A DNA stretch of 64,000 nucleotides from an uncultured virus (IMG/VR IMGVR_UViG_3300042880_001179) (lineage: Duplodnaviria; Heunggongvirae; Uroviricota; Caudoviricetes), in the IMG/VR virus record IMGVR_UViG_3300042880_001179; one strand, 5' to 3'. The first letter of the stretch is position 1, and the number at the start of each line of letters is the position of its first letter. A program made the position numbers and the translations under genes. The notes under the pieces were generated by a model that was not told where the DNA came from, did no database searches, and saw only the letters and a program-made list of their open reading frames with translations. Shown here in pieces: positions 1,080-17,330 of the stretch.

Positions 1080-1130
1080 ATTTCATAAAATAGTTTTGGT
1101 GATTGTCCGTAAGGCATAAGGAGGTGAGCG

Positions 1131-1322
1131 ATGGCAAGGACTAAAACTTGTACTTGTGGTTCTGAAGCTGCATTCAACAATTATTGTGCAGCATATGTGT
1201 GTGGTAATTGTGACACTCATGTAGGATTAGCTAGGTGTTATTGTGGGTGGTCTGAATCGGGTGGTAATGGCAGACAAGAATTGGTTGATATGGGTGAGAC
1301 AATTGAGCCTGAGGATTATTAA
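1131..1322 (+). CDS. small Cys-rich (zinc-binding-like) protein
   Basis: AGGAGGTG RBS; CTCG, C..VCGNC..H, CYCG. Confidence 0.7.
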   Translation: MARTKTCTCGSEAAFNNYCAAYVCGNCDTHVGLARCYCGWSESGGNGRQELVDMGETIEPEDY

Positions 1323-1352
1323 GATATCACAATAATTTTGGTAAGTTTGTAA

Positions 1353-1535
1353 TAAGAATTGTCCGTAAGGTGTTCCAACTAACATAAGGAGTTTGAAATG
1401 GAAATGGGATTTTTTCTTGCTCTTGCTGGTTTTGTGATAATGTACTTTCACCACCAATGGCAACTAAAGAATCGGAAAGAAGAGAAGTAAGAATTGTCCG
1501 TAAGGTGTTCCAACTAACATAAGGAGTTTGAAATG
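1353..1535 (+). repeat. 48-bp perfect direct repeat (promoter -10 + RBS + ATG)
   Basis: TAAGAATTGTCCGTAAGGTGTTCCAACTAACATAAGGAGTTTGAAATG at 1353-1400 and 1488-1535. Confidence 0.95.
1398..1490 (+). CDS. 30-aa single-TM microprotein
   Basis: MEMGFFLALAGFVIMYFHHQWQLKNRKEEK; own promoter and AAGGAG RBS; below ORF-track cutoff. Confidence 0.7.
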   Translation: MEMGFFLALAGFVIMYFHHQWQLKNRKEEK

Positions 1536-1619
1536 AATAGTTTAACTTTTTTGGCAATTGCTGCTTTTGTTGGTATGTATTTCGCTCGGCAACATACTTT
1601 AAAAAATAGGGATGATTGA
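1533..1619 (+). CDS. 28-aa single-TM microprotein, paralogue of 1398-1490
   Basis: MNSLTFLAIAAFVGMYFARQHTLKNRDD; shares FLA.A.FV.MYF..Q..LKNR. Confidence 0.7.
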   Translation: MNSLTFLAIAAFVGMYFARQHTLKNRDD

Positions 1620-1624
1620 GCTAC

Positions 1625-1736
1625 ACTACGGGGGGCGAAAACAAAATCGCCTCTGCCCATCACGGTTAAATTATATCCGTTAAGGCGGGTATAGCAGGGC
1701 AATACAGGTGAAACTGTCGAATACCCCGTTTGTGGT
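1625..1736 (+). ncRNA. candidate structured RNA
   Basis: GC-rich intergenic segment with nested complementary pairs ACGGGG/CCCCGT, GGCGA/TCGCC, TGCCC/GGGCA, ACGG/CCGT, ACAG/CTGT. Confidence 0.35.
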
Positions 1737-1754
1737 ACTTAGAAGGAGAGACCT

Positions 1755-1991
1755 ATGGTAGCATTTAAGAATTGGGAACCTTCTGAGAGTGATATAGTCT
1801 GGGTGTCTAATCTTGTCAATATTCTTAAGGAAGGTGCTGTTTGGACTCTTCCCATGAATGGCCAACAGTATCAATTTTTCCACAGCAAGAAAGAAATTCA
1901 TTTTGTTAGTGGCCCGATGGATAATATGTTTACCAAAAACAAACTGGCGTTTTCTCAAATAGGATATACAGTTTTTGATAAACGAAGATAG
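1755..1991 (+). CDS. hypothetical protein
   Basis: AAGGAG RBS; 78 aa ORF ending at next promoter unit. Confidence 0.7.
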   Translation: MVAFKNWEPSESDIVWVSNLVNILKEGAVWTLPMNGQQYQFFHSKKEIHFVSGPMDNMFTKNKLAFSQIGYTVFDKRR

Positions 1992-2055
1992 CATTTATTT
2001 TTTGCTAAATCAACAATAAGTATTGTCCGTAGGGTGTAACCACTAATAAGGAGTT

Positions 2056-2451
2056 ATGGCCATGAGACAGCGCAAGACATTAAGTGGGTTTGTGTTTCGT
2101 AATCTGCACCAAGAAGGTGTAACTTACAGCGTAAGGGATTCTAAAGGCAAAACAATTTTACACACCTATGGTGTTGTTGTTAAGAACCCTAAGTTTGTGG
2201 TGCAGCCCGGAGGCAGGGCAAGAGTGTTACAAACCGGCAAAAAGACTGTTCATGCTGGTGTAAAAGGTGAAATTGTTTTAGATCCTCATGAAATCAGCGA
2301 TGTTATATTTCAATTCTCAAATAAGAATAAGGCTTATTACAATCCCTTAAAGTATGAAACATTTGTAACTGCTGAAGGTAATCCTATATTTTCCGCCGAA
2401 TATGCGTTTCTAACAAGCGAAGACGGTAAAGCTAAAGTAATGTATTGCTAG
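2056..2451 (+). CDS. conserved-looking phage hypothetical protein
   Basis: promoter 2025 + RBS; RNLH...F.VQPGGRARV...VHAGVKG. Confidence 0.75.
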   Translation: MAMRQRKTLSGFVFRNLHQEGVTYSVRDSKGKTILHTYGVVVKNPKFVVQPGGRARVLQTGKKTVHAGVKGEIVLDPHEISDVIFQFSNKNKAYYNPLKYETFVTAEGNPIFSAEYAFLTSEDGKAKVMYC

Positions 2452-2572
2452 CAGAATAATTTTGATAAGTAAGTAATAATTTTTGTCCGTAGGTTGTAAA
2501 TGGCACTTGAAAATATTTTTTAGGGTGCTATTGTGTATGTAGTATATTTTTCTTGATAGGGGGAGTTTATTT

Positions 2573-2737
2573 ATGAGCAGGGAATCGGCATTAAAAGCTT
2601 GGGAAACTCGGCGTTTTAACAAGCGTTCGGAAATAGCCCTCAAGGCTGTTGCTACTAGAAAGAGTAATATTTTGAAAAACAAGCGTTCTGTTGCTGCACA
2701 TAAGGCATGGGCTAAGAGACGGAGTAATATTTCCTGA
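2573..2737 (+). CDS. 54-aa basic repeat protein
   Basis: GGGGAG RBS; MSRESALKAWETRRFNKRSEIALKAVATRKSNILKNKRSVAAHKAWAKRRSNIS with three A.KA..(T/K)R(R/K) units. Confidence 0.65.
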   Translation: MSRESALKAWETRRFNKRSEIALKAVATRKSNILKNKRSVAAHKAWAKRRSNIS

Positions 2738-2795
2738 AAATGTATGGGAATGAATGGTTTCATTCTCAATTTTTAAATTTAAATGGAGTTTTTAC

Positions 2796-5528
2796 ATGTT
2801 AAATACTGTATATGCCAAGGGCAGTGATTTGGGTTTTCATGGTTCTGTAGTCAGTTCGCAAAAGAAAGCTGTTGACCGTTTTTTGCGTAGTCTCAAGCAG
2901 GCGGATGTTTGTTTTAAAAATGCCAAGAAAATCTTGTTGGAAAAGATAATTGATGAAAAAACTTATAATATTGAACCAATTATGGAGAAATTTGAATTTG
3001 ATTTTATTTCGGTGATTGCAAAAATTGAGAATGAGATTTCAAAGAATTCGGAAATGCAGAAGAAATTATGCAAGACTGAAGAAAAATATTATGATGCTAT
3101 GCGTTCTGTTTATAACAGAATTTATACGGATTACAATTTGGGTGATGCTAAGACTCTTGGTGATGAATCAGATTTGTGGAAGATGTGTTTTTGGGAAAAT
3201 GAAGTTGTTAGTTTCATGCTTCATTTTTCAAAATTTTATATGACTTGGGAAGGGCGTGATGAGGAATTGCGTTCTAGTCGCAAAGTGAATTGGAATTCCA
3301 TGCAAGTTGCCAAGAGCATGGAGAAGTGTTTGTATGCCAATCTTAGTCCTTTGATGATGAACATTATTAACGGTGAAGTTCATTGTGCCAAAATTTTGAT
3401 GTTGAATGATACGGGTCATGAGCAACAGATCCGGCGCAATGATCTTTTTGTTCAGCTTTTGTTTAATCATATTACTGTAAAGTATAATATTAGTGGCAAA
3501 GTAGATGATCCGTTTTGGAATGAAAAAGCGTTGAAATATTATAATGAGGAAGTTAACAATCATTTGAATACTGATGATCATATAGAAAGTTCTGATGAAA
3601 GTACTACTTTATCTGAAATTGAAAAAACAAGGATATTCCGTCGTGGTCGTGGTCCGTTGACTGATAAACTCCGTAATTTCATGCGTATTTGCATCCAAAA
3701 AGGATTATATTGCACATTGTTGCTTGATGAAAGTCAAAATGCAACCGGGCGAAATGGTGTTTATCACAAGTTTATGGCGGCAGTAATTGAGCCGGAGGCA
3801 TTTGAAAAAATGCTTCAGGATGAGAAAGAAAATGGTTTAATGTATTGTGAGGAAGATGCAGAAGCTAAAGAAAAAATTGGGGAAGTAGAGAAGGACAAAG
3901 TTTTGCTCAAATTGTTGCATAACAAATTTGTGCGTGCCGAGTATTGGACTGCAACACCGCCCCATCATTATGGAACCAAAGCAGAACAAAGCTACGGTGT
4001 TGTAGGCCTTGAGCATACCGGAATTCATTGCACTAATCAGATCTGGATTAAAAATATTGATGGTGTTTACATGAATGAAAAAGACGCAGATGGACTTAAG
4101 TCTAACATTGTAGACTTGGAAGAATGCTTTTTCAAAATTGATGGTGAAAAGCTCAATGTTCTATATTACAACCCTACTTTGTACAGTAATCCGGGCAAAT
4201 TTAGGGCACATAAAAAACGCAAAAAGCTACCTGCTACTTTTACTCATGATATGTATAGGGAAATTTGCCATAGGATTTTTGCAAGACTGATTGAACAACA
4301 AGCAAATAAGACAGAAAAAGTGCATTTAGATAAGTGCATTGATCCTGATGGAAAATCTTGGATTGCCATGCGTGTTACAAGACAAAACACCTTGACAGAA
4401 GATGTTCTTATTCCGGGTATTATTCGCCACTTAAGGAATCCTGATAATTTTGTATTACAGACATATAACAATAAAACCAAAAATCAGCCTGAATTTGAAG
4501 GCAAGAATTTCTTTTTGCGTAAATTCTGCCGTATTGTAATGAACAAACCAGAGAATACTGGCAAATCATTTGTGGTGTTTTTCACCGCCAAAGGAAGATG
4601 TGGCGACCAATTTCCCATTGACTTTAGGTCTTTTGTCGAAATACCCGGCTTGAATTGTTTTGACACTACGGTGCTGTTGCAAAGTTTTTATGGCAGAAGC
4701 AATGGTTATTTCAAAGGTGTGCCTAATGTTCTTATGCCAAAAGATCAAGCTGATTTAATTAGAGAGTATATCGAACTGCAAGGTGTTGTGCCACCTTCTG
4801 GCGATGCTAAAAATACAAAATGGCAAGGAGCATTAGCCATGACTCAGGATATTTCTGTATACCAGCCAAATATTGATTCTAAATTCGACGGAGAACATTA
4901 TCGTCCCGAAAAAAATGAATTCGAATGTGTTAATCCCAAATTAGCCGAAGCTTTGCATGAAATTGAAAAAAGCCTAATTTCTGCAACATCTCATATCGGT
5001 AATTCTACTAGAGGAATGCCTACGGAAATTCCGATTGATGTTATTGCCAAATTTGTTACCGCTGCAAAACAAGCAGGCATCAAAGCTGCAGATGTAAACA
5101 ATTTGCAATATCTGTATAAAAGACGTAACGGAGATTATATGCGTCATGTTTACTTTGACCCCCAAAAAAGCAAGCCAGCTGCCATTAAAGTTAAAAACCG
5201 TGGTGCAAGAAAGGGTGATAGGAGCATAGGCGGTAGCGTTTCAGGAAACTCTCAAAGTCTAGGAGGTTCCGAAATTTTCCAGCCAACTCTTACTTGGCAT
5301 CCAGTTTGGAAAAATGGAATACAAGTGGGCAAAAAGCTTATATCAGTTCAATTGCTTATGCACAGCTGCATGACTGTTCCAGACAGAACTCCATTACTTG
5401 GGTGCAACAAATATAATCGTTCTACAGTAAAAGTAACATCAGACAGGGTTGTTGACCCAAATAAGTCCGCAAGTGGCTTTGTAGATGGCTTTGTTAACCA
5501 TGAAAAAGAATCCGATGATGCCAAATAA
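2796..5528 (+). CDS. SF2 helicase-like protein, Z1-domain family-like
   Basis: LLLDESQ (Walker B-like), YWTATP (motif III), LLQSFYGRSNGY (motif VI like Z1 proteins), degenerate Walker A MQVAKS. Confidence 0.5.
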   Translation: MLNTVYAKGSDLGFHGSVVSSQKKAVDRFLRSLKQADVCFKNAKKILLEKIIDEKTYNIEPIMEKFEFDFISVIAKIENEISKNSEMQKKLCKTEEKYYDAMRSVYNRIYTDYNLGDAKTLGDESDLWKMCFWENEVVSFMLHFSKFYMTWEGRDEELRSSRKVNWNSMQVAKSMEKCLYANLSPLMMNIINGEVHCAKILMLNDTGHEQQIRRNDLFVQLLFNHITVKYNISGKVDDPFWNEKALKYYNEEVNNHLNTDDHIESSDESTTLSEIEKTRIFRRGRGPLTDKLRNFMRICIQKGLYCTLLLDESQNATGRNGVYHKFMAAVIEPEAFEKMLQDEKENGLMYCEEDAEAKEKIGEVEKDKVLLKLLHNKFVRAEYWTATPPHHYGTKAEQSYGVVGLEHTGIHCTNQIWIKNIDGVYMNEKDADGLKSNIVDLEECFFKIDGEKLNVLYYNPTLYSNPGKFRAHKKRKKLPATFTHDMYREICHRIFARLIEQQANKTEKVHLDKCIDPDGKSWIAMRVTRQNTLTEDVLIPGIIRHLRNPDNFVLQTYNNKTKNQPEFEGKNFFLRKFCRIVMNKPENTGKSFVVFFTAKGRCGDQFPIDFRSFVEIPGLNCFDTTVLLQSFYGRSNGYFKGVPNVLMPKDQADLIREYIELQGVVPPSGDAKNTKWQGALAMTQDISVYQPNIDSKFDGEHYRPEKNEFECVNPKLAEALHEIEKSLISATSHIGNSTRGMPTEIPIDVIAKFVTAAKQAGIKAADVNNLQYLYKRRNGDYMRHVYFDPQKSKPAAIKVKNRGARKGDRSIGGSVSGNSQSLGGSEIFQPTLTWHPVWKNGIQVGKKLISVQLLMHSCMTVPDRTPLLGCNKYNRSTVKVTSDRVVDPNKSASGFVDGFVNHEKESDDAK

Positions 5529-5550
5529 TAACCAAAAAAAGGAGATTGCC

Positions 5551-6495
5551 ATGAGTCATCATATCAATGGTTTTTGGAAATTGGCCAAACGCAAAAACAA
5601 ACTCAGAATGTACATTGCCAAAAGCTTTGAACAAACACAACCTAAAGTAAGTTTGTTTTTGCCGGGAATTGATATCGCCTGCATTAAAACAATTTGGGAA
5701 GGAGGGCATGTACATTCGAAAATGAAAATCATACTTGTAGAAAGAAATCCTAAAATAATGCAAGAAATAAAAGAAAAAGTTTTAAAATTGTCCAAACAAC
5801 TTCACCAACAATGCACTTTTCACACAGGAGAATTGCATGACCTTATATTGAATTACAAAATAGAATTTTCTTACATTGACCTTCTGGGAAATATAACACT
5901 TGATTTGTATCAATGGTTCACAGATCAATACCTAAAAAATGTTTCCCCCACATGCGTCACATTCCTGACGGTTCAAAAAGCATATAGAGGAAATACATTC
6001 ATGAGAGCATGGCGTAATTATATCTGGAATGTAGATGCCGAACTCAAGAAAATATTCTATTCCTACAGAGAGGATCAAAAAAGAAAACACCCAGAAATAA
6101 AACAATCATTTTATAATAGAAAAGTACCATATACACTTTGGCTGCTAGATGGGATGTTCAGACAAACCAGAAAACAACATGTGTACAAAAATATATTGCA
6201 ATATAAAGACATTAAAGATGGCACAATGGCTTGCACTATGCTTCTTATTAAAATAAAACTCAAAACCAAAGCCACTTCCGTTAATATACCTGATATGTCA
6301 AAAATAGACTTAGATCATATGATTAAATGCTTGGAATCACGACCAGTTGTTTCAATAAAAAGTTTAAAACGTAAGCTAGCAGGTCAAAAAGCTGCATATA
6401 CACGAGCTATCAGAAATGGCAATACCACCAAGTTGAAATTATATAAAATTAATATAAACAGATTACAGCGTTTCTTGGCCAAGTCTGCCAAGTGA
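5551..6495 (+). CDS. putative class I SAM-dependent methyltransferase-like protein
   Basis: LFLPG...IILVERN...FSYIDLLG pattern; basic C-terminal LAGQKAAYTR; GGAG RBS before 5551. Confidence 0.4.
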   Translation: MSHHINGFWKLAKRKNKLRMYIAKSFEQTQPKVSLFLPGIDIACIKTIWEGGHVHSKMKIILVERNPKIMQEIKEKVLKLSKQLHQQCTFHTGELHDLILNYKIEFSYIDLLGNITLDLYQWFTDQYLKNVSPTCVTFLTVQKAYRGNTFMRAWRNYIWNVDAELKKIFYSYREDQKRKHPEIKQSFYNRKVPYTLWLLDGMFRQTRKQHVYKNILQYKDIKDGTMACTMLLIKIKLKTKATSVNIPDMSKIDLDHMIKCLESRPVVSIKSLKRKLAGQKAAYTRAIRNGNTTKLKLYKININRLQRFLAKSAK

Positions 6496-7245
6496 ATAAT
6501 CTACATAGGATTTATCAATCTCAATACCACAGTAGGATCTGCCAAGCCTTTTTGCAGATGCTGCTGTGGTGCCACTACCACTAAAAGGATCTAAAACACA
6601 ACCACCAATAGGGCAAAATATCTGTATCAGTTGACTCGCAAGTTCCTCGGGAAATTGTGCAGGATGAGGATTGCCCTTTTTATTTTTAGATACACCTACA
6701 CTGAAAACATCTGTGCTTCTAACAATAATGTCTGGAATTGCCTCTTTATGCTGACAACATAAACCCATTTCAAAATAACGCTTGTTTGTAAAACCAACAT
6801 CACCTTTTCTGCCTAAACCCTTAGCATTTACATAAGGTTTATCTACCTTGCTAAACCAATACAAATCCTCAAAAGCTCTTCTCAACCTTTTCTTACTACC
6901 CAAAGGAGCAGCCGTAGGCTTATGCCATACAAACCTACCATTTAATTTCCAACCATTATCACATAAATGCAAAATAGTCCTCAAAACATACAAGTCCTGA
7001 CAACCATTCTTCTCATGTTCTCTTATATTTAAAATTATCGAACCATCAGATACCAAAGTCCGACTCACTAAATTAAACCACTTTAAAGTAAATTCAGCAT
7101 AAGTTTCAATGCCTATGCTAGGATAATATTTAGACCTCTGCAATGCATAAGGAGGACTTGTAAAACATAAATTTATAACACTTTCCGGCATATCTGGTAA
7201 TGTTTCAAATAAATCACCACAAATAATCTTGTTTAAATATTCCAT
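6463..7245 (-). CDS. site-specific DNA methyltransferase (N4-C/N6-A, beta class)
   Basis: FTSPPY catalytic motif, HPAQFPEEL, VLDPFSGSGTT SAM-binding motif. Confidence 0.92.
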   Translation of the reverse strand: MEYLNKIICGDLFETLPDMPESVINLCFTSPPYALQRSKYYPSIGIETYAEFTLKWFNLVSRTLVSDGSIILNIREHEKNGCQDLYVLRTILHLCDNGWKLNGRFVWHKPTAAPLGSKKRLRRAFEDLYWFSKVDKPYVNAKGLGRKGDVGFTNKRYFEMGLCCQHKEAIPDIIVRSTDVFSVGVSKNKKGNPHPAQFPEELASQLIQIFCPIGGCVLDPFSGSGTTAASAKRLGRSYCGIEIDKSYVDYSLGRLGQETL

Positions 7246-7337
7246 AAAATTAAGGGAGTATTATTTCAGCTTTTGCTAACACAATAATTTACATAAGTCT
7301 GCATATCCAGTTCTCCGTAATAATAAGGAGGTGCATA

Positions 7338-7553
7338 ATGAGTACACCAGCTGAAGTTAGGAAAGAACTTAAGAAACGGGGACTTCCCTACAATATTTAC
7401 AAGACCCATATGTGTTGGTATGTGATTGAAGGTGATGCAGATGCTTGGGAATCCACTTCCCTAAACACCTACACCTTTAATGGCAGACCAGCTAGTTGGT
7501 GGGTGGACATTATTTACGATATGCAAAAGGATTACATATCCAAACAAGCCTAA
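7338..7553 (+). CDS. hypothetical protein
   Basis: variant promoter 7313, AGGAGGTG RBS. Confidence 0.7.
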   Translation: MSTPAEVRKELKKRGLPYNIYKTHMCWYVIEGDADAWESTSLNTYTFNGRPASWWVDIIYDMQKDYISKQA

Positions 7554-7562
7554 CATATCCAC

Positions 7563-7603
7563 AAACACCTATCGGCAACAAACCCGATAGGTGTTTATCT
7601 TTT
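7563..7603 (+). terminator. intrinsic terminator
   Basis: AAACACCTATCGG...CCGATAGGTGTTT followed by T-rich tail. Confidence 0.7.
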
Positions 7604-7726
7604 GATATCACAATAAATTCGCTAAAAGGGAAATAAGAATTGTCCGTAGAGTGTTCTACTTACTTGAATTATTTTGGTAAGTGGCTAATGTGAGTGTTCC
7701 ATTACACTAATTAAGGGAATTGACCA

Positions 7727-8653
7727 ATGCGCCGAATTAACACCCGTTCTTCCCGCCCTGTTCGTAACATGGTTGAAGGTCTTGCCCGCTGGGAAGGCAA
7801 AACCCCCCTGCAATCTTTGGCAGAAATCCAAGCAGATTGGGAACCCCAAACTGTTGGACTGCAAACTATGGATGGGATTACGGTTGACGGCAAGAAAGCC
7901 GTTGTCAATCCCCTTACTAAAAAGGTCCTAGGAATTGTTTCAGATGGTTGGCGGCCTATGCACAATCGAGTGATTGCCGAAAGCATCACCGAATTGGGCG
8001 AAGCTATGGAAATGTCCATCAATCTCACCAATGCCTATAACCTAAACGGTGGTAATCTTGTCTGCCTTGAAGCACAAATTGGCAACTCTGTCGAAATTGT
8101 GCCGGGTGATGATGTAATGCCGATTGTTAAGTGCATCCAAGGTAATGGCGGTAACTCCCCACTTGCGTTCTCCTTTGAGATTATGCGATTGGTATGCTCC
8201 AATGGCATGAGAGCACCTGTTGAAGGTATGTCTGCAATATTCCGTTGCAAACACACTAAGAATATCGAAACTCGTTATTCTTGGAACTTCGATGGTGTTC
8301 TGAAAAACTTCTCAGTCATGCGTGATAACATGATTGAAAAGTTCAGGAAGTTGGCTGGAAGGTCTGCTTCCGATGCCGAAGCAAGAATGTTCTTCAATGA
8401 GATTGCGAAGAATGTAAGAGGAGATAAAGATGATAAGGCTGACCAAACCATCAGCGATATGATTGATGTTTGGAACCACCCCCGTCAGTTGAGTGCTGGC
8501 CGGAACTATTGGGGACTCCTCAATACCGCTACGGAATACCTGCAACATTACGGGTTTCGTAACGATGAACAAATGCATCTCCAGAATATCAATGGAAGTG
8601 CTGTCAGAATGAAGGACGAAGCTTTCAGGCTCGCCATATCTATGGCTGCCTAA
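7727..8653 (+). CDS. DUF932/DUF945 (LGT_TIGR03299-like) protein
   Basis: VLGIVSDGW.P.HN, RLVCSNG, RCKHT, WGLLNTATEY. Confidence 0.8.
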   Translation: MRRINTRSSRPVRNMVEGLARWEGKTPLQSLAEIQADWEPQTVGLQTMDGITVDGKKAVVNPLTKKVLGIVSDGWRPMHNRVIAESITELGEAMEMSINLTNAYNLNGGNLVCLEAQIGNSVEIVPGDDVMPIVKCIQGNGGNSPLAFSFEIMRLVCSNGMRAPVEGMSAIFRCKHTKNIETRYSWNFDGVLKNFSVMRDNMIEKFRKLAGRSASDAEARMFFNEIAKNVRGDKDDKADQTISDMIDVWNHPRQLSAGRNYWGLLNTATEYLQHYGFRNDEQMHLQNINGSAVRMKDEAFRLAISMAA

Positions 8654-8820
8654 TCGGCAAGGCCGGGGGGATGTCCCATTGCATCCCCCGTGGGGGTTGA
8701 GTCTGTGGAACAGACTAAATCGTGAACTGCGTTGACGCTCACTACTCCGATTGCCGAGCGGTTCAAACCAACGGAATTTGGACAGGACCGGTCCTAATGC
8801 CCCCACAACGGCCTCTCTTT
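8654..8820 (+). ncRNA. candidate multi-branched structured RNA
   Basis: nested stems AGGCCG/CGGCCT, GGGGGATG/CATCCCCC, GTGGGGG/CCCCCAC, AGTCTG/CAGACT, GTGA/TCAC, TCCG/CGGA in a GC-rich intergenic gap. Confidence 0.5.
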
Positions 8821-8916
8821 ATACAACTTACTGTAGTGTTACAAATTATTTTGCTAGCACAATAATTTCCATAAGTCTGCATATCCAGTTGTCCGTAATG
8901 GCAAGGAGGACGGACA

Positions 8917-9480
8917 ATGAACGAAGAATTTGGTACTGGCAAACAATGCAAACAAAATGACACACCTCAAAAGCAGGCTGCTAAATTGTGGTTGGAAAAA
9001 CAAGGCTTTACTAATGTTACCATCACAGCTAAAGGTAGCGATATTTATTTCAACGATAAAGGTGTAATCAAACGAGCAGAGGTTAAAGGCGCAAATTCTG
9101 TTAACAACGGTAAGAGAAGAGGCATTGATAACAATTATTTCGGTGCAGCTACACAAACCGAAATCGATTACGCACTACAAATGGGTGAAAATTATAACTG
9201 GCTATTTGCTTTCCGGGCTGATGACAATATCGAAAACGCTGCTGATATTGAAAAGGGTTGGAAGTTTGTAATGTATTCAACCGCTCAACTTGTTGACCAC
9301 CTTTATATTCCACCCATGAAATATTATATTGATTTGCCAGCTTTGAATGATCCAAAGCCTAAGCGAATATCCACCAAGGAAATGCTGGGAGTACGCAGAC
9401 TTACTATGGATACCCTACGCTTTGCACAACAAAAATGGCATGAAATGAAACTGGCATTAGATCAAATGATATCACAATAA
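8917..9480 (+). CDS. PD-(D/E)xK nuclease-like protein (DUF3883-like)
   Basis: WLEKQGF...GSDI...RAEVKG. Confidence 0.45.
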   Translation: MNEEFGTGKQCKQNDTPQKQAAKLWLEKQGFTNVTITAKGSDIYFNDKGVIKRAEVKGANSVNNGKRRGIDNNYFGAATQTEIDYALQMGENYNWLFAFRADDNIENAADIEKGWKFVMYSTAQLVDHLYIPPMKYYIDLPALNDPKPKRISTKEMLGVRRLTMDTLRFAQQKWHEMKLALDQMISQ

Positions 9481-9530
9481 TTTCCATAAGTTGGCATATC
9501 CATTTGTCCGTAATGGCAAGGAGGCCACAA

Positions 9531-9695
9531 ATGAAACACTTGACAATAACCGATGTCATCGACCTTTCCCCTGACCATCCCCTGATGATTGAATTCATGA
9601 AACAGGTGGAAGCAGAAGAAATACCCGCCATATCCATGTTGGATTGTGAAGAGTCACTGGCTTATTTCGACCGCTACATTGCAGGAGATAGATAA
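9531..9695 (+). CDS. small acidic hypothetical protein
   Basis: promoter 9506 and AGGAGG RBS precede ATG 9531. Confidence 0.65.
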   Translation: MKHLTITDVIDLSPDHPLMIEFMKQVEAEEIPAISMLDCEESLAYFDRYIAGDR

Positions 9696-10207
9696 TGTAC
9701 ACCATCAAGAATATGAATGAGCCCAAATGGTCACAACTTCTCTCCCCAGAAAAGGGACGCATTAAAGGTATCTTTATACCTGTACTTGGCCCAATTGTTG
9801 AAGTCTATATAAAAAGAAAAGATAGTTTGGATGAATTCCGAAAACTCGTAGACGGATATATCGAAGCTGTCAGCCTAGATTCCGCCGATATGTACTGCAA
9901 CGAAGAAGGAAGACTAATGAACCTCCCCCTCAACTTCAGGGCTACCAGACTAAACCTATCTAGGTTTAGTGAACATAAAGGCGAAGCATCTATCGGTATC
10001 GTTGGCGATGTGCTACTACTCGGTAGCGTTGATAGGTTTGGCTACAATACAAACCTAAATACCAATAAATTTTATAAGTGGCTCAAAAGCCAACCCGAAT
10101 ACAAACTCAAAGACTTTGCTATAGATCCCGGCTATGCAAGCATGGTACATATCCATGAACAAATGGAAGCCAGATTCCAAAAAGAAAATTGGTGGGATAT
10201 TTCCTGA
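9695..10207 (+). CDS. DUF3846 family protein
   Basis: LDEFRKLVDGYIEAV...YCNEEGRL.NLPLN.RAT...IVGDVLLLG. Confidence 0.75.
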   Translation: MYTIKNMNEPKWSQLLSPEKGRIKGIFIPVLGPIVEVYIKRKDSLDEFRKLVDGYIEAVSLDSADMYCNEEGRLMNLPLNFRATRLNLSRFSEHKGEASIGIVGDVLLLGSVDRFGYNTNLNTNKFYKWLKSQPEYKLKDFAIDPGYASMVHIHEQMEARFQKENWWDIS

Positions 10208-10279
10208 TAGCACAATAAATTCCATAAGTTTGCATATCCAGAAGTCCGTAGGGTGTCACCACTAACTAAGGAGACTACG

Positions 10280-10474
10280 ATGGAAAAGAACTTTGTTGTT
10301 AAATTTGAAGGTTTTGAATTTAATGTAGATGTTAGCCAATATGATACAGAATCTACCATTGAAATATTCTATAGCGGCAAAACTCCTGAAGCACAACAAA
10401 AGCTCTATGATGATGACTTTATGGAATCATTAGAGAATCATGTGAAATCTAAACTCAACGCTGGCACTCTTTGA
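10280..10474 (+). CDS. small acidic hypothetical protein
   Basis: promoter 10244 + AAGGAG RBS. Confidence 0.7.
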   Translation: MEKNFVVKFEGFEFNVDVSQYDTESTIEIFYSGKTPEAQQKLYDDDFMESLENHVKSKLNAGTL

Positions 10475-10548
10475 GATATCACAATAATTTCAATAAGTTA
10501 GTAATAAGTTTTGTCCGTAGGGTGTAACAACTAACTAAGGAGATTGAA

Positions 10549-10821
10549 ATGAGCAATCGATCATTTCTCGAATCTGTCACTATAAGCAATAATAAAACTA
10601 AAGAAGAAAGTTATGCAATAAAAATTTATGATGATTATGGAACAGCAATTTTATCAGTAGAAAATGCTATAGATGATGATTTTGATATTTTGAAAACAGC
10701 AATCTCATCAAAAGATGAGGTGGCCAATGGTATTCTTGACCACATTCGGGAAATGGAAAAAGGTTTATATATCTTTGAAACATGGTACGATTGGGATGAA
10801 ATTAAACATCTTTTCAATTGA
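10549..10821 (+). CDS. acidic hypothetical protein
   Basis: promoter 10513 + AAGGAG RBS. Confidence 0.75.
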   Translation: MSNRSFLESVTISNNKTKEESYAIKIYDDYGTAILSVENAIDDDFDILKTAISSKDEVANGILDHIREMEKGLYIFETWYDWDEIKHLFN

Positions 10822-10893
10822 TATCACAATAATTTCAATAAGTTTGCATATCCAGAAGTCCGTAGGGTGTCACCACTAACTAAGGAGATTGAA

Positions 10894-11268
10894 ATGGAAT
10901 CGATTCGCCAAATGGAACGCCATATCCAAGGCTATGTATCCGTAAACGGTAATCCTGAATGTACCCACCTCAAAGTGGTTGTAAGCTTCCGCCAAGGCGG
11001 ACTCAATATGTGGGATTATAAACAAGAGCAGAAAGGGTACTACCTATCTGTAAGCCCAGTTAAAAAAGAAGTTCGAGACGGCTTTACATGGGAGACTTCA
11101 ACCATTTTCACCGGCTACAAGTCCTTTATTCAAACTGCCAACAGGTTCAATAAAAAACAATTGGTGCAACTTTTCGAAAATGTTGCAAATGATTATAACA
11201 AAGGCGAAGGTGCAGTATGCCAAATTATGGATAGAGTTAAATTAGAACAAAATGTTGCAATAGTGTGA
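10894..11268 (+). CDS. hypothetical protein
   Basis: promoter 10858 + AAGGAG RBS; KGYYLSVSPV. Confidence 0.75.
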   Translation: MESIRQMERHIQGYVSVNGNPECTHLKVVVSFRQGGLNMWDYKQEQKGYYLSVSPVKKEVRDGFTWETSTIFTGYKSFIQTANRFNKKQLVQLFENVANDYNKGEGAVCQIMDRVKLEQNVAIV

Positions 11269-11312
11269 TATATTGTTATAAGTTTGATACATTACAACAA
11301 TAAGGAGTTATC

Positions 11313-11531
11313 ATGAGCGTTAAAGAGCCTAAAGAGTTTGATATGGTTGCCCGTCGCCCTTTCACCCTTAACGGGGAAGCATATAAAAAAGGTCAAGGCT
11401 TCAAAGCCTATCTGGTTGGAGCATTCGTTAAAGATGGCATTGAATTGGCAGAAGTACAAATTGGGGAACATAAACCCAATGCAGTACCTTGGGACTTTGT
11501 GGTGTTTGCCGAAATGTGGGGGAAGGTATGA
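11313..11531 (+). CDS. hypothetical protein
   Basis: AAGGAG RBS, 72 aa. Confidence 0.7.
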   Translation: MSVKEPKEFDMVARRPFTLNGEAYKKGQGFKAYLVGAFVKDGIELAEVQIGEHKPNAVPWDFVVFAEMWGKV

Positions 11532-11611
11532 TGATTATTCTTGTAGCCTTTTATGCAATAATGCTGTCTATTATGCTCATGCTTGTTGGTGTTAATTTTC
11601 CCAATAAGTAA
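11528..11611 (+). CDS. 27-aa hydrophobic microprotein
   Basis: ATGA overlap with upstream stop; MMIILVAFYAIMLSIMLMLVGVNFPNK. Confidence 0.45.
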   Translation: MMIILVAFYAIMLSIMLMLVGVNFPNK

Positions 11612-11624
11612 AACAGATAGCCAT

Positions 11625-11682
11625 ATACACGCACATGAGAGAGTATCCCGCCAATCCCAAATACTCTCTTGTGTGCGTGTAT
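11625..11682. repeat. 22-bp inverted repeat with 14-nt loop
   Basis: ATACACGCACATGAGAGAGTAT / ATACTCTCTTGTGTGCGTGTAT; the only two mismatches are G-U wobbles on the + strand. Confidence 0.85.
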
Positions 11683-11809
11683 TGTTTTATAAACACTCAC
11701 TTATCAAAAGATATAAGGATTTTTTCGATAAGTTAGGATTTTGTTTTGTCCGTAGGGTGTCCAAGGCACAACGCCTGAGACAAAAAACCGCCGAATGGAG
11801 TTTACTACA

Positions 11810-12274
11810 ATGGCTACCCCCAAATTTATCGACCGCATCTTGAACCTGAAAAAGGGATCGTTTGTGACTGTGGCCTTCAAACGGGCCGCAAAGGTAAGAA
11901 AAAACCAAACCCCCCTGTTCAAAGTCTGGAAAGGCGTAGTTCGCCCCGGCATAACTTATGATAATATTGGTGCAGTCCAAGAGGGAAGGGAAAACGGTAC
12001 TCTTCCCGGTGAAAATGCCGGACTCCCCTACGGGGTATGGCACACTTTCCCATATGTTATTGAACACAACGGGGAATTCCACTACCGCTGGACAATGACA
12101 GGTGGAAAAACGCTGGATTCCCACTATGAAGATGAAAATGGCAACATTATTTCAGCCGAAAATGCTAGGGAAATTTGCCTCGCCAGTGAATTTCCTACCA
12201 ACAAAGGGCCAGTTACCGTTATGAACACCAAAGAGGTGAACCTAACCGAAATAAACGGGGAAACACTTGAATAA
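11810..12274 (+). CDS. hypothetical protein
   Basis: promoter 11748, hairpin leader, GGAG RBS; LPYGVW..FPYVIEH. Confidence 0.75.
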   Translation: MATPKFIDRILNLKKGSFVTVAFKRAAKVRKNQTPLFKVWKGVVRPGITYDNIGAVQEGRENGTLPGENAGLPYGVWHTFPYVIEHNGEFHYRWTMTGGKTLDSHYEDENGNIISAENAREICLASEFPTNKGPVTVMNTKEVNLTEINGETLE

Positions 12275-12293
12275 TCATTAACTATTACTATCG

Positions 12294-12330
12294 GGCAGGG
12301 TTGATATTATTCAACCCTGCCTTGTTTTTT
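12294..12330 (+). terminator. intrinsic terminator
   Basis: GGCAGGGTTGA-tattat-TCAACCCTGCC + T-run. Confidence 0.8.
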
Positions 12331-12516
12331 ATAAAATTTTAAAGTCTTTAAACCTACTCAATATCAACTTACTGTAGTCATATACATTACTTGGCAAAAT
12401 TTTGATATCAAAAGACATACAAAAGTTTTTGATAAATTGCAAACAACCATTGTCCGTAGAGTGTCAGGGCAAGTGACCCTGACAAAAAGAAACCGCCCTA
12501 AAGGGAGTTGATGACG

Positions 12517-12981
12517 ATGGCTAACAACATTGCAAGCTCGAATGTGGTTAAGGTTGTAACCGGCGTTGAAGGGGCTCTTGATGGTAACCTACTGGGTTAC
12601 GAGGTGATGTTCGAAGAGGCCCACACAAGGGAACTGCAATTGGCCAAGGTAAAGGCCGATTATCGCAAGGAAATGGCAGCTATGGGGTTTGTAATCCCCA
12701 ATCCAACCAAGGTGACCAAGGCGAAAAAGAAGGTTCGCCAGCACACAAAATCCCGCCTCAAGCGGTTCAAGGCGGTTGCAGCTGAATTGCGCCGGGAAGA
12801 GCGCAAAGCTCGCCGAAAACTGCAAAAATCGGCCCTTGCAGCCCTTAAGCTGGACGAAAAGCATATTCGCCTCCGGCTCCAGTCCCCCGAAGTTAAGGGG
12901 ACACAATGGGAAATGGTGGTTATGGAAGACCTTGCCGAAAACATGGCCGAACAAGCCCGCCTGACCGCCCCCAAGGCATAA
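12517..12981 (+). CDS. basic helical hypothetical protein
   Basis: promoter 12452, GGGAG RBS; K/R-rich centre. Confidence 0.7.
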   Translation: MANNIASSNVVKVVTGVEGALDGNLLGYEVMFEEAHTRELQLAKVKADYRKEMAAMGFVIPNPTKVTKAKKKVRQHTKSRLKRFKAVAAELRREERKARRKLQKSALAALKLDEKHIRLRLQSPEVKGTQWEMVVMEDLAENMAEQARLTAPKA

Positions 12982-13002
12982 AATTGGCCCCTAGGGGGCA
13001 TG

Positions 13003-13039
13003 AAAACCCCGGCTAGGAATATCCTAGTCCGGGGTTTTT
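13003..13039 (+). terminator. intrinsic terminator
   Basis: AAAACCCCGGCTAGGA..ATCCTAGTCCGGGGTTTTT. Confidence 0.8.
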
Positions 13040-13303
13040 GCATATCTATAAGTCTATATCAGGTTGATATACTTTATCAACTTAATATAGATTTTTTTTT
13101 GAAACAAGGCGAAAATCCACAGTAAGTTGATTTAGTTCACTACCAATTATCAACTTACTGTAGTGATACACCTTGTTTGGCAGATATAAAGTAATAGCAA
13201 TTGATATCACTATAAATTCGATAAATCTTATTTAGGAATTGTCCGTAGGGTGTCTGAAGCAAAGTGCCGAAGACAAGAAAACAGCCTAAATGGAGTTAGT
13301 AAC

Positions 13304-14227
13304 ATGGCCGTTCGTCAACGCCCTTCCCGTCAAGTGGTTTCTATGGCCAATGGTATCGCCCGATGGGACGGGGCAGACGCCCTGACCGCCCTGAAAGAGA
13401 TCGGGGCAGACTGGGCACCCGTGATGGAGCCTATTCACCGCCCCAATGGGGAAGCTATCGCCGGAAAGTTGGCGGTGGTCAATCCAGTTGCCAATAAGGT
13501 GCTTGGTATCACCAGCGATAGCTACGGTGGTTTGCACAATCAAATGTTATCTGAAGGTATCGACCGGCTGGCAACCGCTATCGGTTTGCCCTATCGTATG
13601 TCAAGGGCTGAAATGTTCAACGATGGTGCTACCGTGCGCCTCGAGGCTATCCTAGGTGATAGCATTAAACTTGGGGACAGCGATACCGTATATAAAGTGG
13701 TATCTGCTTTTCAAGGGCATGGTGGAAACACGCCTTACACCTTCCTCGTGGAGTTCAAACGGTTAGTTTGCTCAAACGGTCTGATGATCAAGGTTCCCGG
13801 CCTTAATACGGCCTTCCGTTGCAAGCATACCCAAAACGGGGCTGCTAGGGTGGAATGGAATTTTGGTCTAATCCAGTCCAGTTTTGCCCAAGCAACGGGC
13901 GACACCGAGAAAGCTTTCCGGCTTTTCAGCGAAAAAAGATTGAACGGTGTAGGTGCTAGAGAATTCTTTCGCCAGTATGCTTCCAGCGTACTAAAGCAAA
14001 AAGATGATAAACTAGACCAAACTGTTAGTGACCTTTTGCTAACATGGGTAAACGGAAGGCAGCAAATGGCTGGTGATACAATGTGGAGAGCTTTCAACGC
14101 TCTCACCGAGTATAACCAACACTATGGTTTCCGCACTGATGAGGCCATGCTGCTATCAAACCTCGACGGTAGCGCAGCAAACGCCAAGGTAGATGCTTTC
14201 AACTTCACCTTGGCTATGGCGGCCTAA
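13304..14227 (+). CDS. DUF932/DUF945 family protein, paralogue of 7727-8653
   Basis: RLVCSNG, FRCKHT, WRAFNALTEY.QHYGFR; colinear with 7727-8653 and both end in MAA. Confidence 0.8.
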   Translation: MAVRQRPSRQVVSMANGIARWDGADALTALKEIGADWAPVMEPIHRPNGEAIAGKLAVVNPVANKVLGITSDSYGGLHNQMLSEGIDRLATAIGLPYRMSRAEMFNDGATVRLEAILGDSIKLGDSDTVYKVVSAFQGHGGNTPYTFLVEFKRLVCSNGLMIKVPGLNTAFRCKHTQNGAARVEWNFGLIQSSFAQATGDTEKAFRLFSEKRLNGVGAREFFRQYASSVLKQKDDKLDQTVSDLLLTWVNGRQQMAGDTMWRAFNALTEYNQHYGFRTDEAMLLSNLDGSAANAKVDAFNFTLAMAA

Positions 14228-14250
14228 CAGCCCTTAGGGATTGATATCGC

Positions 14251-14304
14251 TAACCCGCTAGAGATGATAAGTCTCTAGCGGGTTATATATTTTTATTTTT
14301 TTTT
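14251..14304 (+). terminator. intrinsic terminator
   Basis: TAACCCGCTAGAGA...TCTCTAGCGGGTTA + T-rich tail. Confidence 0.75.
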
Positions 14305-14503
14305 AACCTAACGGGGCACTACAGTAAGTTCATATTTTGTATTCTTCAATATCAACTTACTGTGGTCACATGCCTTACTTGGGGCTTCCCTAATAGCAAG
14401 TGATATATCCATAAATTCGATAAATCTTATTTAAGTTTTGTCCGTAGGGTGTCCAAAGCACTTCGCTAAGGACAAGTGAGACCACCGCTGAGGAGTGCTG
14501 ACC

Positions 14504-14851
14504 ATGGCCAACACCACCATCCTGCCTTTCGCCCAAAACATCATCAACCTGAGCTTTGGTGACGTTTTCGTCACCACGGGGGAGACCGTGCGGGACTTCA
14601 CCGACATGATTAGTATCTACCCGGGCGGGCTGGGGAGTGGCACTAGCTACTCTGCCCGTGTGCGGGATGGGGTCATCACCTATGTGACCCAGCTGGAAGA
14701 TTTCTGGTGCGAGGAAGAGAACCAGTACCTGCCCGAGGATGTATGGGGGTGGCCGGTGCGCCATGAGGGCGACACGGTCGCCAGCCTAGGGGGTCGCCTG
14801 CCCGATGAGGTAAGGGAAGGCCTTGAGGCCATCGGCCTTCAAGTGGCCTAA
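14504..14851 (+). CDS. acidic hypothetical protein (paralogue of 15484-15894)
   Basis: promoter 14440; shared VFVTTGET..D..D.ISI and GW.V.HEGD.V..L.G.LPD.V..GL.AIG. Confidence 0.75.
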   Translation: MANTTILPFAQNIINLSFGDVFVTTGETVRDFTDMISIYPGGLGSGTSYSARVRDGVITYVTQLEDFWCEEENQYLPEDVWGWPVRHEGDTVASLGGRLPDEVREGLEAIGLQVA

Positions 14852-14870
14852 ACGCCCGTCGCCCACCTGA

Positions 14871-14909
14871 AACCCCCGGCCTAACCCGCCGGGGGTTTTT
14901 TTATTTTTT
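14871..14909 (+). terminator. intrinsic terminator (CCCCCGG family)
   Basis: AACCCCCGGCCTAACCCGCCGGGGGTTTT; identical hairpins at 16727 and 17251. Confidence 0.85.
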
Positions 14910-14968
14910 GTGGAAAATATTCCATCCTCATGCGAATTACTGGTGAACCCCTAAAACAAAGGTGCTGC

Positions 14969-15328
14969 ATGAATCCTGAAAAGCTGAACAAGATTGCCCT
15001 CAAGAATTGCGCCAAACGGCTTTTTAAGTGCGTAAAGCTAGACGCACCAGCCGTAGTTCTATTCAATGAGGCTAGACGCCTTTTTGAACACGCCAAATTG
15101 CTCTCAGGAGGCAATTGCTACGCACATTGGCTCCAAGAGCAAGCTTTAGAAGAAGTGGCCTTAAAACGCAATTCTAAGGGGTATTGCGCCACACTAACCT
15201 GTAACCAAGAATCGTTCGAGGAAAACCAATTTGAAAATAAAATCTATTGCTGTGATTGCTACCATGCACACAAAGAACAAAAGCGCAAAGATGATGAATA
15301 CCTAGACAGCTTGGATAATGGCGACTAA
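14969..15328 (+). CDS. hypothetical protein with C-terminal Cys cluster
   Basis: YCATLTC...YCCDCYH. Confidence 0.6.
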   Translation: MNPEKLNKIALKNCAKRLFKCVKLDAPAVVLFNEARRLFEHAKLLSGGNCYAHWLQEQALEEVALKRNSKGYCATLTCNQESFEENQFENKIYCCDCYHAHKEQKRKDDEYLDSLDNGD

Positions 15329-15483
15329 TCCACGCTTACATATCAATTTACTGTAGTGCTTGGGGTCTCCATAATAGCAAGTGATATATCCATAAATTAC
15401 ATAAATCTTATTTGGGTTTTGTCCGTAGGGTGTCCAAAGCACTTCGCCTAGGACAAGTTAAACCGCCTGCGGGAGTTAGTAAC

Positions 15484-15894
15484 ATGGCCAGCACCACCTT
15501 CGCCCTCGAATCCATCCAAGACGCCCTGATGGGCGTTTTCACGCCCTTCCAAGTGGCTATTGAGACCCCGGAGGTTTTGCTGCCCTACAATCAAAATATG
15601 GTCGATTTTGATGGAGGCACCGTTTTCGTCACAACTGGCGAAACCACCAAAGATTACATCGACGATATTAGCATCGGGGAAGATTTCCAATGCCGGGTAG
15701 TCGATGGCAAGATTGTCAGAATCGACCAATTCGAATGGGACTATAGCGATAGTGATGGGAAGTGGGAATATGTTCCGTTTGAAGTGTGCGGGTGGGATGT
15801 TTCGCATGAGGGCGACGAGGTTCGCCCCCTCTGGGGTACTCTACCCGATACCGTTGCCAACGGGCTGTATGCGATAGGGATTCTGGTTCGCTAG
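15484..15894 (+). CDS. acidic hypothetical protein (paralogue of 14504-14851)
   Basis: promoter 15421; sequence similarity to 14504-14851. Confidence 0.75.
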   Translation: MASTTFALESIQDALMGVFTPFQVAIETPEVLLPYNQNMVDFDGGTVFVTTGETTKDYIDDISIGEDFQCRVVDGKIVRIDQFEWDYSDSDGKWEYVPFEVCGWDVSHEGDEVRPLWGTLPDTVANGLYAIGILVR

Positions 15895-15901
15895 CCCCCT
15901 C

Positions 15902-15930
15902 AACCCCCGGTCAAAAGCCGGGGGTTTTTT
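15902..15930 (+). terminator. intrinsic terminator
   Basis: AACCCCCGG-tcaaaag-CCGGGGGTTTTTT. Confidence 0.85.
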
Positions 15931-16157
15931 GTTTTCATATAGTTTGTATCCACAATTAGTTGAAATTAAATATCTTTAAAGTAACTTACTAATCCATTCT
16001 TAAATAACAACTTACTGTGGGCACATACTCTTTTCTGGGACAGCTGAATAGCAAAAGATATACTTAAGTTTTTACTAAATCTTATCTAAGTTTTGTCCGT
16101 AGGGTGTCGAGGCAAGTGACCTCGAAAAACAAAAACCGCCCTAAAGGGAGTTTGACC

Positions 16158-16715
16158 ATGTCCTACACCAACGCACCAGCAACCGTTCTTTTGGCCACCC
16201 AATGCTGTGCTTGCGGCAGGCCTTTGGTGGACGCCACCAGCGTTGAGCTTGGGATCGGGCCGGAATGCCGGGCCGGTTTCGACGGGGGCATCAGCGACGA
16301 TGTTCGCCAGCAGGCGAACAAGCTCACTCACAAGGCGGCGCTGGCCGCCCAAGAGGGCCGCATCCACGAAGTGCAGGCTATTGCGGGGGAATTGGTCGCC
16401 CTTGGGCTGGCGGGGCTGGCCGAAAAGGTGGCCAGCAGGTTCACTAACGCCGAGCGGTTGGCCAAAATCCACCTCACGGTGGTGGGCGACAGCCTAAAGG
16501 TGGTCACCCCCTATCGCCGGGGCGACAGCGAAGCTTTCATCTCTGCATGGCGGGCTGTGCCCGGTCGCCGGTATCGGGACAAGGCCAACTTTGTTCCCCT
16601 CACGAGTGAGGCCAGACGGGCCGTCTATGACCTGCTCACCCGGTTTTTCCCCGGCCAGTACGCCAAGGGGCCAAAAGGCGTGTTCCGCCTTCCCAAGGCC
16701 GAAAAAGCCGAATAA
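16158..16715 (+). CDS. DUF6011-like zinc-ribbon protein
   Basis: CCACGRPLVDATSVELGIGPEC. Confidence 0.7.
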   Translation: MSYTNAPATVLLATQCCACGRPLVDATSVELGIGPECRAGFDGGISDDVRQQANKLTHKAALAAQEGRIHEVQAIAGELVALGLAGLAEKVASRFTNAERLAKIHLTVVGDSLKVVTPYRRGDSEAFISAWRAVPGRRYRDKANFVPLTSEARRAVYDLLTRFFPGQYAKGPKGVFRLPKAEKAE

Positions 16716-16726
16716 TCGTCCCGTCC

Positions 16727-17330
16727 AACCCCCGGCCTAACCCGCCGGGGGTTTTATTTTGTACCCATAGCATACCAATCACCTCTTCAATATCAACTTA
16801 CTGTAGGCCTATGTTGGTCATCCTTGGTTTTTGATATCATAAAATATACAAAGGTTTTTGATAAATCGTTTATAACAAATGTCCGTAGAGTGTCGAGGCA
16901 ACGAAGCCCTGACAAAAACCAAAACCGCCTTTGGGAGTTTGAAAAATGGTCGAAGCCACTTGGGTCAACGTGAACGGGGTTTGGGGTGTTAAGGTTGTGG
17001 GCGCAGCCAAGGAAGGGGACCAAGTAATGGTGCGGAAGCGCACAGGGTCCGCCACCCTGCAAACGCTTGGCCAACAGCTGGCAGCTGGCGTGTTCGCCAA
17101 GGCTGGCAAGGTATCGCAGGTGCGTCGCCGCCCATGGCGGTCGCTGGCCGCCACCATCGAACGGGTGTACGGGGAGGACATTGAGGCGGGCGCAGCCGCC
17201 CACGCCCAAGACTGGGATGACTTCCGCAACTAATCTTCCCAGTCTACCCGAACCCCCGGCCTAACCCGCCGGGGGTTTTATTTTGCACCTATAGTATACC
17301 AATCACCTCTACAATATCAACTAACTGTAG
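16727..17330 (+). repeat. ~80-bp imperfect direct repeat (terminator + upstream box) flanking ORF 16946-17233
   Basis: 16727-16806 vs 17251-17330 differ at only a few positions. Confidence 0.9.
16946..17233 (+). CDS. hypothetical protein
   Basis: promoter 16881, hairpin leader, GGGAG RBS; WGVKV.G...GD.V.V.KR. Confidence 0.7.
   Translation: MVEATWVNVNGVWGVKVVGAAKEGDQVMVRKRTGSATLQTLGQQLAAGVFAKAGKVSQVRRRPWRSLAATIERVYGEDIEAGAAAHAQDWDDFRN

Follow-up and report, generated by a model that had tools for sequence, protein, structure and literature searches.

What is the structured stretch that follows the stop codon of a DUF932 gene in an uncultured tailed phage, and does it belong to that gene or stand on its own? 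A sequence-only reading of the window (the whole stretch of DNA analysed, 64,000 nucleotides) had described positions 8654 to 8820 as a multi-branched RNA with far more structure than a terminator needs, and had proposed an unclassified ncRNA or ribozyme carried as cargo of a gene array. All of the motifs that it listed are present where it placed them, and "unclassified" proved apt: no Rfam family reaches its gathering score anywhere in the 64 kb, and the one local match to Rfam 15 at E ≤ 10, a snoRNA model at E 4.7 inside coding sequence, is a chance match. The analysis below identifies the element as a real, lineage-restricted RNA fold, absent from Rfam, at the end of a phage early gene.

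The DUF932 cassette ends in the element

The window is part of the genome of a large tailed phage, with a 2670-aa tape-measure-like gene and baseplate-like genes (named by eye from their sequences). The stretch 7300–9500 was found in 20 of the 22 runs listed, 17 of which contain at least half of its words; five of these 17 are possible sources of the window, and nearly all of the other 12 are metagenomes from lakes or fresh water. The source is a freshwater jumbo phage, a large phage of lakes. Small genes, each preceded by a repeated promoter-like motif, form an array at about 7250–17300 and 1070–2510.

One of these genes (7727–8653, + strand) encodes a 308-aa DUF932 protein (PF06067, E 1.3e-20; phrog_1221). 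Its stop codon, 8651–8653, abuts the RNA, which begins at the very next base. Upstream lies a cassette repeat of family D2 with putative promoter activity (7587–7663, +; profile match E 1.4e-14). Between 7663 and 8818 neither a sigma-70 scan nor the cassette-promoter profile finds anything; around the element the profile matches only 7587–7663 and 8818–8914. With no cassette promoter of its own, and occupying the terminator slot of DUF932, the element is not the separate array cargo that had been proposed but forms the 3′ end of DUF932's own cassette.

The stem and tail of an intrinsic terminator are present at this site: after the stop codon, a 6-bp closing stem (5 G–C) on an 8-bp hairpin is followed by a U-rich tail (8815–8823, +; 5 T in 8 nt), the probable 3′ end of the transcript. 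A terminator scan did not call the site because that scan requires a loop of 3–8 nt and the stem here encloses 143 nt. The tail is followed at 8824 by the spacer motif of the cassettes, which in most of the others comes after a terminator hairpin.

The next cassette (8818–9480, +) lies outside the RNA and comprises its own promoter repeat and a gene for a 187-aa NOV_C-like (PD-(D/E)XK-type) putative nuclease, whose Atlas features score 0.95 to NOV_C clusters with a TM of about 0.55. In part of the lake population this cassette is deleted, as seen in run X16 from a joint of 8847 to 9470 at depth 9. The variant X16 contig that lacks the cassette has changes at 8815 and 8817 that make the tail more U-rich. 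Since the 3′ end of the RNA remains where the nuclease cassette has been lost, the RNA is independent of the nuclease. The loss of 8847–9470 between two promoter repeats is itself a direct example of repeat-mediated cassette loss.

The DUF932 protein gives little away about its role. Its structure model (pLDDT 81) has a best VIA-align Z of 8.5, on a helical bundle, and no Foldseek match at E ≤ 0.001, so that structure comparison offers no clue to function; the literature searched holds no paper that ties DUF932 to an RNA motif. The DUF932 messages are more folded than their synonymous shuffles (z −3.0 and −3.9, against +0.5 to −3.0 for 14 genes outside the array), and the coding stretch 8190–8400 (+) is strongly folded (z −5.3). 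The middle of the gene is also structured across the related loci L003, L005, L006 and L007–L010 and in the paralogue; a consensus of four sequences has 59 pairs, three of them with two-sided change. Such folded messages fit selection for protected early messages. In contigs from three RNA runs, pieces of DUF932 (7679–7941, 7910–8172, 8310–8471 and 8476–8681) appear at low depth and none spans the core of the RNA, although contigs of this kind cannot show absence. On the minus strand an ORF at 8312–8806 shadows DUF932.

A predicted double-pseudoknotted fold around a four-way junction

The + strand of 8640–8830 folds better than its dinucleotide shuffles (z −4.16, with 0 of 200 as good), and the − strand beats 199 of 200 (z −3.04). 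The element, with a GC content of 57%, gives z −3.7 over 8654–8820; the 119-nt inner domain (8690–8808, +) gives −3.2 and the core without its closing stem (8698–8798) only −1.4. As single-stranded DNA the element scores about equally on both strands (−3.5 and −3.9). None of these values is exceptional in this genome. In a scan of 180 windows over 1–18000 (+ strand, 20 shuffles each) plain terminators reached −7 to −9, and the window nearest the element ranked 16th; part of the DUF932 coding sequence scored −5.3 to −7.5.

The nested stems that had been drawn for the element held up in their outer part and failed in their inner part. The outer stem (8660–8665/8809–8814) and the hairpin stacked on it (8666–8673/8682–8689), which together span 8660–8814 (+), have pair probabilities of about 1; the closing stem of the inner domain (8690–8697/8799–8806) and the AGTCTG/CAGACT hairpin, here hairpin A (8700–8716, +; 6 bp, 8700–8705/8711–8716), lie at about 0.9–1.0. 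The inner stems as drawn jointly reach −60.0 kcal/mol against a minimum of −71.7 kcal/mol. In the nested ensemble TCCG/CGGA does not exceed a pair probability of 0.1 and the hairpin of the 12-nt palindrome has one of only about 0.15, and all four pairs of the GTGA/TCAC stem are broken or wobbled in a second natural allele (three wobbles and one mismatch, counted by hand).

In our revised model, which has 53 pairs and is valid on the window sequence, the closing stem surrounds a four-way junction. Beyond hairpin A, the core contains helix Y (8723–8765, +; 8723–8730/8758–8765), the sole 8-bp helix that lies wholly inside it, and hairpin D (8776–8798, +; 8776–8783/8791–8798), with seven pairs, one U–U mismatch and a 7-nt loop; hairpin D is also present in the minimum fold computed with DNA parameters. 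The 27-nt loop of helix Y holds one strand of each of two predicted pseudoknots. In PK1 the six nucleotides that directly follow the stop codon (8654–8659, +) form six Watson–Crick pairs with 8752–8757, and in PK2 (8746–8775, +) 8746–8749 form four pairs with 8772–8775, the weakest element of the model. That both pseudoknots share a single loop is a predicted arrangement. The minimum-energy fold prefers a different inner helix, 8756–8764/8785–8793; a fold constrained to contain helix Y reaches −70.2 kcal/mol, a cost of 1.5. The suggestion of a pseudoknot between TCGGCAA and TTGCCGA is supported: the complement is real, would arise by chance in 0.8% of cases for that 7-mer (1.5% for any leader 7-mer, 3–8% for 6-mers), and the partner strand of PK1 (8752–8757) is unchanged in the second allele.

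A second natural allele respects the model

Contigs of four runs were compared over 7200–9600, and one contig from the DNA run X16, a lake metagenome, carries a second allele of the element at a depth of 16.4 of 29. This natural variant is a built-in control for a fold that is missing from Rfam. From distances to contig ends its extent is estimated at about 8673–8810, and among the differences listed 16 lie within 8703–8779. In the core the two alleles diverge by 21%, whereas the DUF932 gene has only 3 changes in 541 nt.

All 53 model pairs are kept by the second allele. Five of the 16 changes fall in helices and all of these still pair, one repairs a mismatch, and ten are at positions unpaired in the model. 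Three one-sided changes leave all 8 pairs of helix Y intact. Hairpin A retains six pairs by way of two G–U changes, while its innermost, seventh pair breaks and its loop changes freely; in hairpin D the U–U mismatch becomes G–U. The 3′ strand of PK1 (8752–8757) and the 5′ strand of PK2 (8746–8749) are unchanged although the adjacent positions 8750–8751 have both changed, and PK2 pairing is unaltered. The competing helix of the minimum-energy fold (8756–8764/8785–8793) acquires a mismatch, as does a stem at 8768–8771/8778–8781. The allele changes, then, avoid or respect the helices and both pseudoknots.

When 16 like changes are placed at random, 5.1 pairs are broken on average and the probability of breaking none is 0.0008, a value that is optimistic since the model was picked after the allele had been seen and the broken seventh pair of hairpin A was left out. 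The corresponding probability is 0.013 when the pseudoknots are omitted, and 0.045–0.11 for helix Y alone. Between the two alleles there is no two-sided compensatory change, and together with the post hoc choice of model this makes the support from the allele moderate and not decisive. Four of the five helix changes create G–U pairs; these would be A–C mismatches on the other strand, which favors an RNA read from the + strand.

The domain is absent from related loci

Relatives were drawn from seven homologous protein clusters, six of which were aligned with both copies from the window, giving eight orthologous metagenome loci (L003–L010) with DUF932 protein identities of 41–76%. Near-identical members of the DUF932 cluster number 38. 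A plain hairpin and a U-rich run end all eight loci, and likewise the paralogous DUF932 gene of the window (13304–14227), whose simple terminator had been correctly recognized in the sequence-only reading. Neither nhmmer nor a covariance model matches the RNA in any of the eight loci, and the 119-nt domain is absent from every one. The plain hairpins of the eight loci and the paralogue indicate that the element is lineage-restricted.

Without 8690–8808 the outer part becomes a perfect 14-bp hairpin that resembles the terminators of L008 and L010. L010 is identical to the outer hairpin arms at 10 of 10 positions in the 5′ arm and 10 of 11 in the 3′ arm, with L008 nearly as good, and the phage's own terminator family (repeat D11) has the same C-run/G-run stem. 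These matches suggest that the 119-nt domain was set into an old terminator. Alignment support from the 3′ ends is weak, with 12–56 of 500 shuffles as good for seven related loci (p 0.02–0.11) and 206 of 500 for the paralogue, and a MAFFT alignment of the 3′ ends placed no clean 119-nt gap. The closest orthologue, L003, resembles the 3′ part of the RNA, similarly weakly (18 of 500 shuffles), and therefore loss of the domain in the relatives is also possible.

The call for homologues was answered only by the second lake allele; elsewhere in the collections searched no homologue came to light. In IMG/VR the DUF932 protein, a DUF932 alignment and an array protein gave no loci. One pattern scan returned 2 matches, in coding DNA of one unrelated phage type; another returned 80, none at nhmmer E < 2; a third returned 0; and a fourth returned 87, 80 of which were scored by covariance model with none at E ≤ 10. 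None of the 37 matches of a promoter-motif scan fits the promoter profile. In GTDB genomes there were three matches in Lachnospiraceae, and the one of the three examined is coding DNA; blastn against phages and plasmids gave no match at E 10. The covariance model (R1) had the window sequence as its only input, which makes it weak for distant relatives: over the window and L003–L010 it found only itself, and unfiltered over 1–32000 the next score was 7.9 bits. No such RNA is described in the literature searched; the supplement of PMC5737381 might list a related motif, although the families of that study should be in Rfam.

Comparison with known RNA classes

HDV-like ribozymes carry a C-N-R-A motif in their J4/2 junction, and their 3-bp P3 closes the conserved L3 loop directly before the 3′ strand of P1. 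Here L3 has no match on the + strand and one 6-mer on the − strand, which lacks a P3 stem. The hammerhead core CUGAnGA is absent from both strands. Group I and lariat-capping ribozymes possess a P7 guanosine-binding helix with a conserved R sequence, and a P4–P6 domain; in the element the R motif is absent and only 15 nt of loop are left for P4–P6. Twister, twister-sister, pistol, hatchet and glmS have no Rfam model match, their permuted forms outside Rfam having been compared by eye only. Missing core motifs or a wrong strand order also spoke against resemblances to twister, pistol, hatchet, glmS, SRP, HEARO/omega RNA, group II domain V and tRNA.

In the lariat-capping ribozyme GIR1 the closing stem, a side hairpin and an inner stem meet in an outer three-way junction; next come a long helix and a pseudoknot strand, and one last hairpin precedes the closing strands. 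The element shares this order of three-way junction, long helix, pseudoknot strand and last hairpin, but it has neither room for P4–P6 nor the P7/R motif, its first pseudoknot strand lies outside the long helix, and GIR1 is known only from eukaryotic nucleolar introns. The two are also alike in length, at about 160–190 nt (PMC4167309). The delta-like and theta forms of HDV-like ribozymes occur in phages (PMC10879173), and the element may resemble them in a nested double-pseudoknot layout, with the 5′-most strand paired inside, and in a hairpin that precedes a short C-starting junction and the closing strand. The element differs from them in that it lacks an L3/P3 module, its 5′ helix does not start with G1, and it has no Rfam match and no adjacent tRNA, and in the 54 nt that separate its closing 5′ strand from the 3′ strand of PK1.

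What the element may do

In its likenesses the element stands nearest to intrinsic (Rho-independent) terminators and 3′ stabilizing hairpins, with which it shares a position after the stop codon and a G+C stem followed by a U-rich tail. It differs from them in what its stem encloses: where they have a loop of 3–8 nt, it has a hairpin and a four-way junction of 119 nt with two predicted pseudoknots. It probably works most like such a terminator or 3′ stabilizer, even though it failed the test for a simple hairpin. The best explanation, to which we give roughly an even chance, is that the element is a 3′-UTR terminator or end-protector and that selection maintains the 119-nt folded domain within its stem. 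The early DUF932 message would start at the cassette repeat near 7640 and stop near 8820. The outer stem would be the family's ordinary terminator hairpin, in whose 3′ arm the four-way-junction domain would sit in this lineage, clamped by two pseudoknots, one of them onto the six nucleotides after the stop codon. Ending the transcript and shielding it from 3′ exonucleases would be the most likely job of such a compact fold. A terminating ribosome covers the bases just 3′ of the stop codon, so PK1 lies inside its footprint and the fold would be expected to open during translation and to close otherwise; this could tie the end or the lifetime of the message to translation. So much structure is more than termination requires, and the inner domain may therefore serve a separate function.

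The same nested double pseudoknot, with its 5′ end paired to an inner strand, could instead belong to an undescribed self-cleaving class, in which PK1 would dock the 5′ strand into the core and a cut there would free the RNA from its message, much as HDV-like ribozymes cleave at the 5′ end of their nested double pseudoknot. We consider this improbable. C8794 does occupy a J4/2-like position, in a C-N-R-A just before the closing 3′ strand, but the motif occurs nine times on the + strand of the region and its presence at 8794 therefore means little. Both alleles can form the two pseudoknots, yet their strand order differs from that of HDV. Patchy presence among relatives would suit a ribozyme; as a small one, however, it would be unusually long at 160 nt and unusually variable in its core, and the element has no Rfam ribozyme match and, on the + strand, lacks the HDV-like L3 and P3, the hammerhead core, the group I R motif and group II domain V. 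Self-cleaving ribozymes do occur near phage genes (PMC6765202, PMC10879173), the catalytic C comes first in HDV-like J4/2 (PMC10879173), and the hammerhead core is retained in rearranged forms too (PMC10085705). A bolder version, in which phage terminator stems house a new class of catalytic RNAs of about 160 nt with two pseudoknots, this element being its first example and PK1 recognizing the few bases after the stop, seems to us slightly less probable again. On such a catalytic model the RNA would cut after the stop codon when no ribosome is present, giving translation-dependent processing of the end of the early message, and if it were true a new ribozyme class would have been found.

Three further readings start from what surrounds or composes the fold. 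Its 5′ and 3′ ends are paired, it is self-contained, and a putative strong early-type promoter lies upstream, so that host nucleases might cut from the 3′ UTR a stand-alone ncRNA acting in trans, for example as a decoy for a host RNA-binding defence protein or as a tRNA-like mimic, a group that includes tmRNA and bacterial Y RNA. A four-way junction, a 7-bp Watson–Crick closing stem, a cloverleaf-like order of arms and a T-loop-like GGTTCAAACC at 8760 would fit such a mimic. However, ARAGORN finds no tRNA or tmRNA gene in the window, conserved D- and T-loops are missing from the right places, the second allele has lost both the T-loop-like stem and the GG of the loop that resembles a D-loop, there is no promoter for the RNA itself, and relatives with 76% identical DUF932 lack it; we think it unlikely. 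The domain could also be a small non-autonomous mobile insert (MITE- or REP-like) or a relic, tolerated in the terminator stem and decaying there without function. As in such inserts, about 120 nt with a short terminal inverted repeat (7 bp, at 8690/8806) appear to have been inserted in a terminator stem, and their removal restores the perfect 14-bp hairpin; the similar folding of both strands as single-stranded DNA, the poor score of the core alone and the strong divergence of the alleles beside a near-constant gene point the same way. The element is nevertheless branched and not rod-like, is present in one copy in the 64-kb window with no second match in the eight related loci or the searched collections, and has no target-site duplication at 8689/8809. 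Its allele changes follow RNA pairing, and PK1 pairs the insert with sequence outside it. This history, too, is improbable. Least likely of all is a regulatory switch, whether an attenuator or a ligand- or protein-binding RNA that governs read-through into the nuclease gene, or a type III-like RNA antitoxin. Two inner folds do lie within 1.5 kcal/mol, and since type III toxin–antitoxin loci have the order pseudoknotted RNA, terminator, nuclease, the sequence of RNA, terminator and NOV_C-like protein recalls them. Against this, a separate promoter repeat precedes the nuclease gene, some members of the population have lost that gene yet retain the 3′ end of the RNA, the RNA has no tandem repeats, and no riboswitch or antitoxin family matches.

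Should the terminator or end-protector reading be right and the element merely end or protect its message, it would mean that complex domains with pseudoknots can be accommodated in phage terminators, and that closely related phages gain and lose them. The reach of this is, for now, one phage lineage and two alleles.

Other features of the array

The promoter-like repeat of the array occurs in at least 19 copies in 1070–2510 and 7250–17300, with variants in L003–L006 and L009. It does not fit the sigma-70 consensus and may be read by an alternative sigma factor of phage or host. The array resembles the PeSL cassettes of T4-like phages, small genes between repeated promoter-like elements (PMC4122927), and the loss of a neighboring cassette between two repeats in the lake population is like the PeSL-mediated deletion described for them; the array differs from them in that its repeat is not a sigma-70 consensus. 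At 7358–7541 run X16 has a divergent allele of a 71-aa gene, with 19 changes in 184 nt between near-identical flanks, which indicates that the array is mosaic. The terminator at 7563–7596, before the DUF932 promoter, contains the 8-mer of the junction between stop codon and PK1 (8652–8659), probably by chance.

Elsewhere in the window, which has no tRNA genes by ARAGORN, there are a DUF2204 nucleotidyltransferase gene (369–1079, +) and a CCA-adding/poly(A)-polymerase-like gene (38366–39658, −; motifs read by eye). An ORF of 924 aa (2754–5528, +) has helicase-like motifs by eye and no Pfam or PHROG match. Finally, 1620–1735 (+) forms a second uncatalogued structured element (z −3.28), which directly follows a stop codon and precedes the ribosome-binding site of the next gene; it has no Rfam match, no real phage match and no copy in L003–L010. 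Its outer stem, inner stem and three arms, one with a GUGAAA loop, give it a layout like that of the DUF932 3′ RNA, although the two sequences are not alike.
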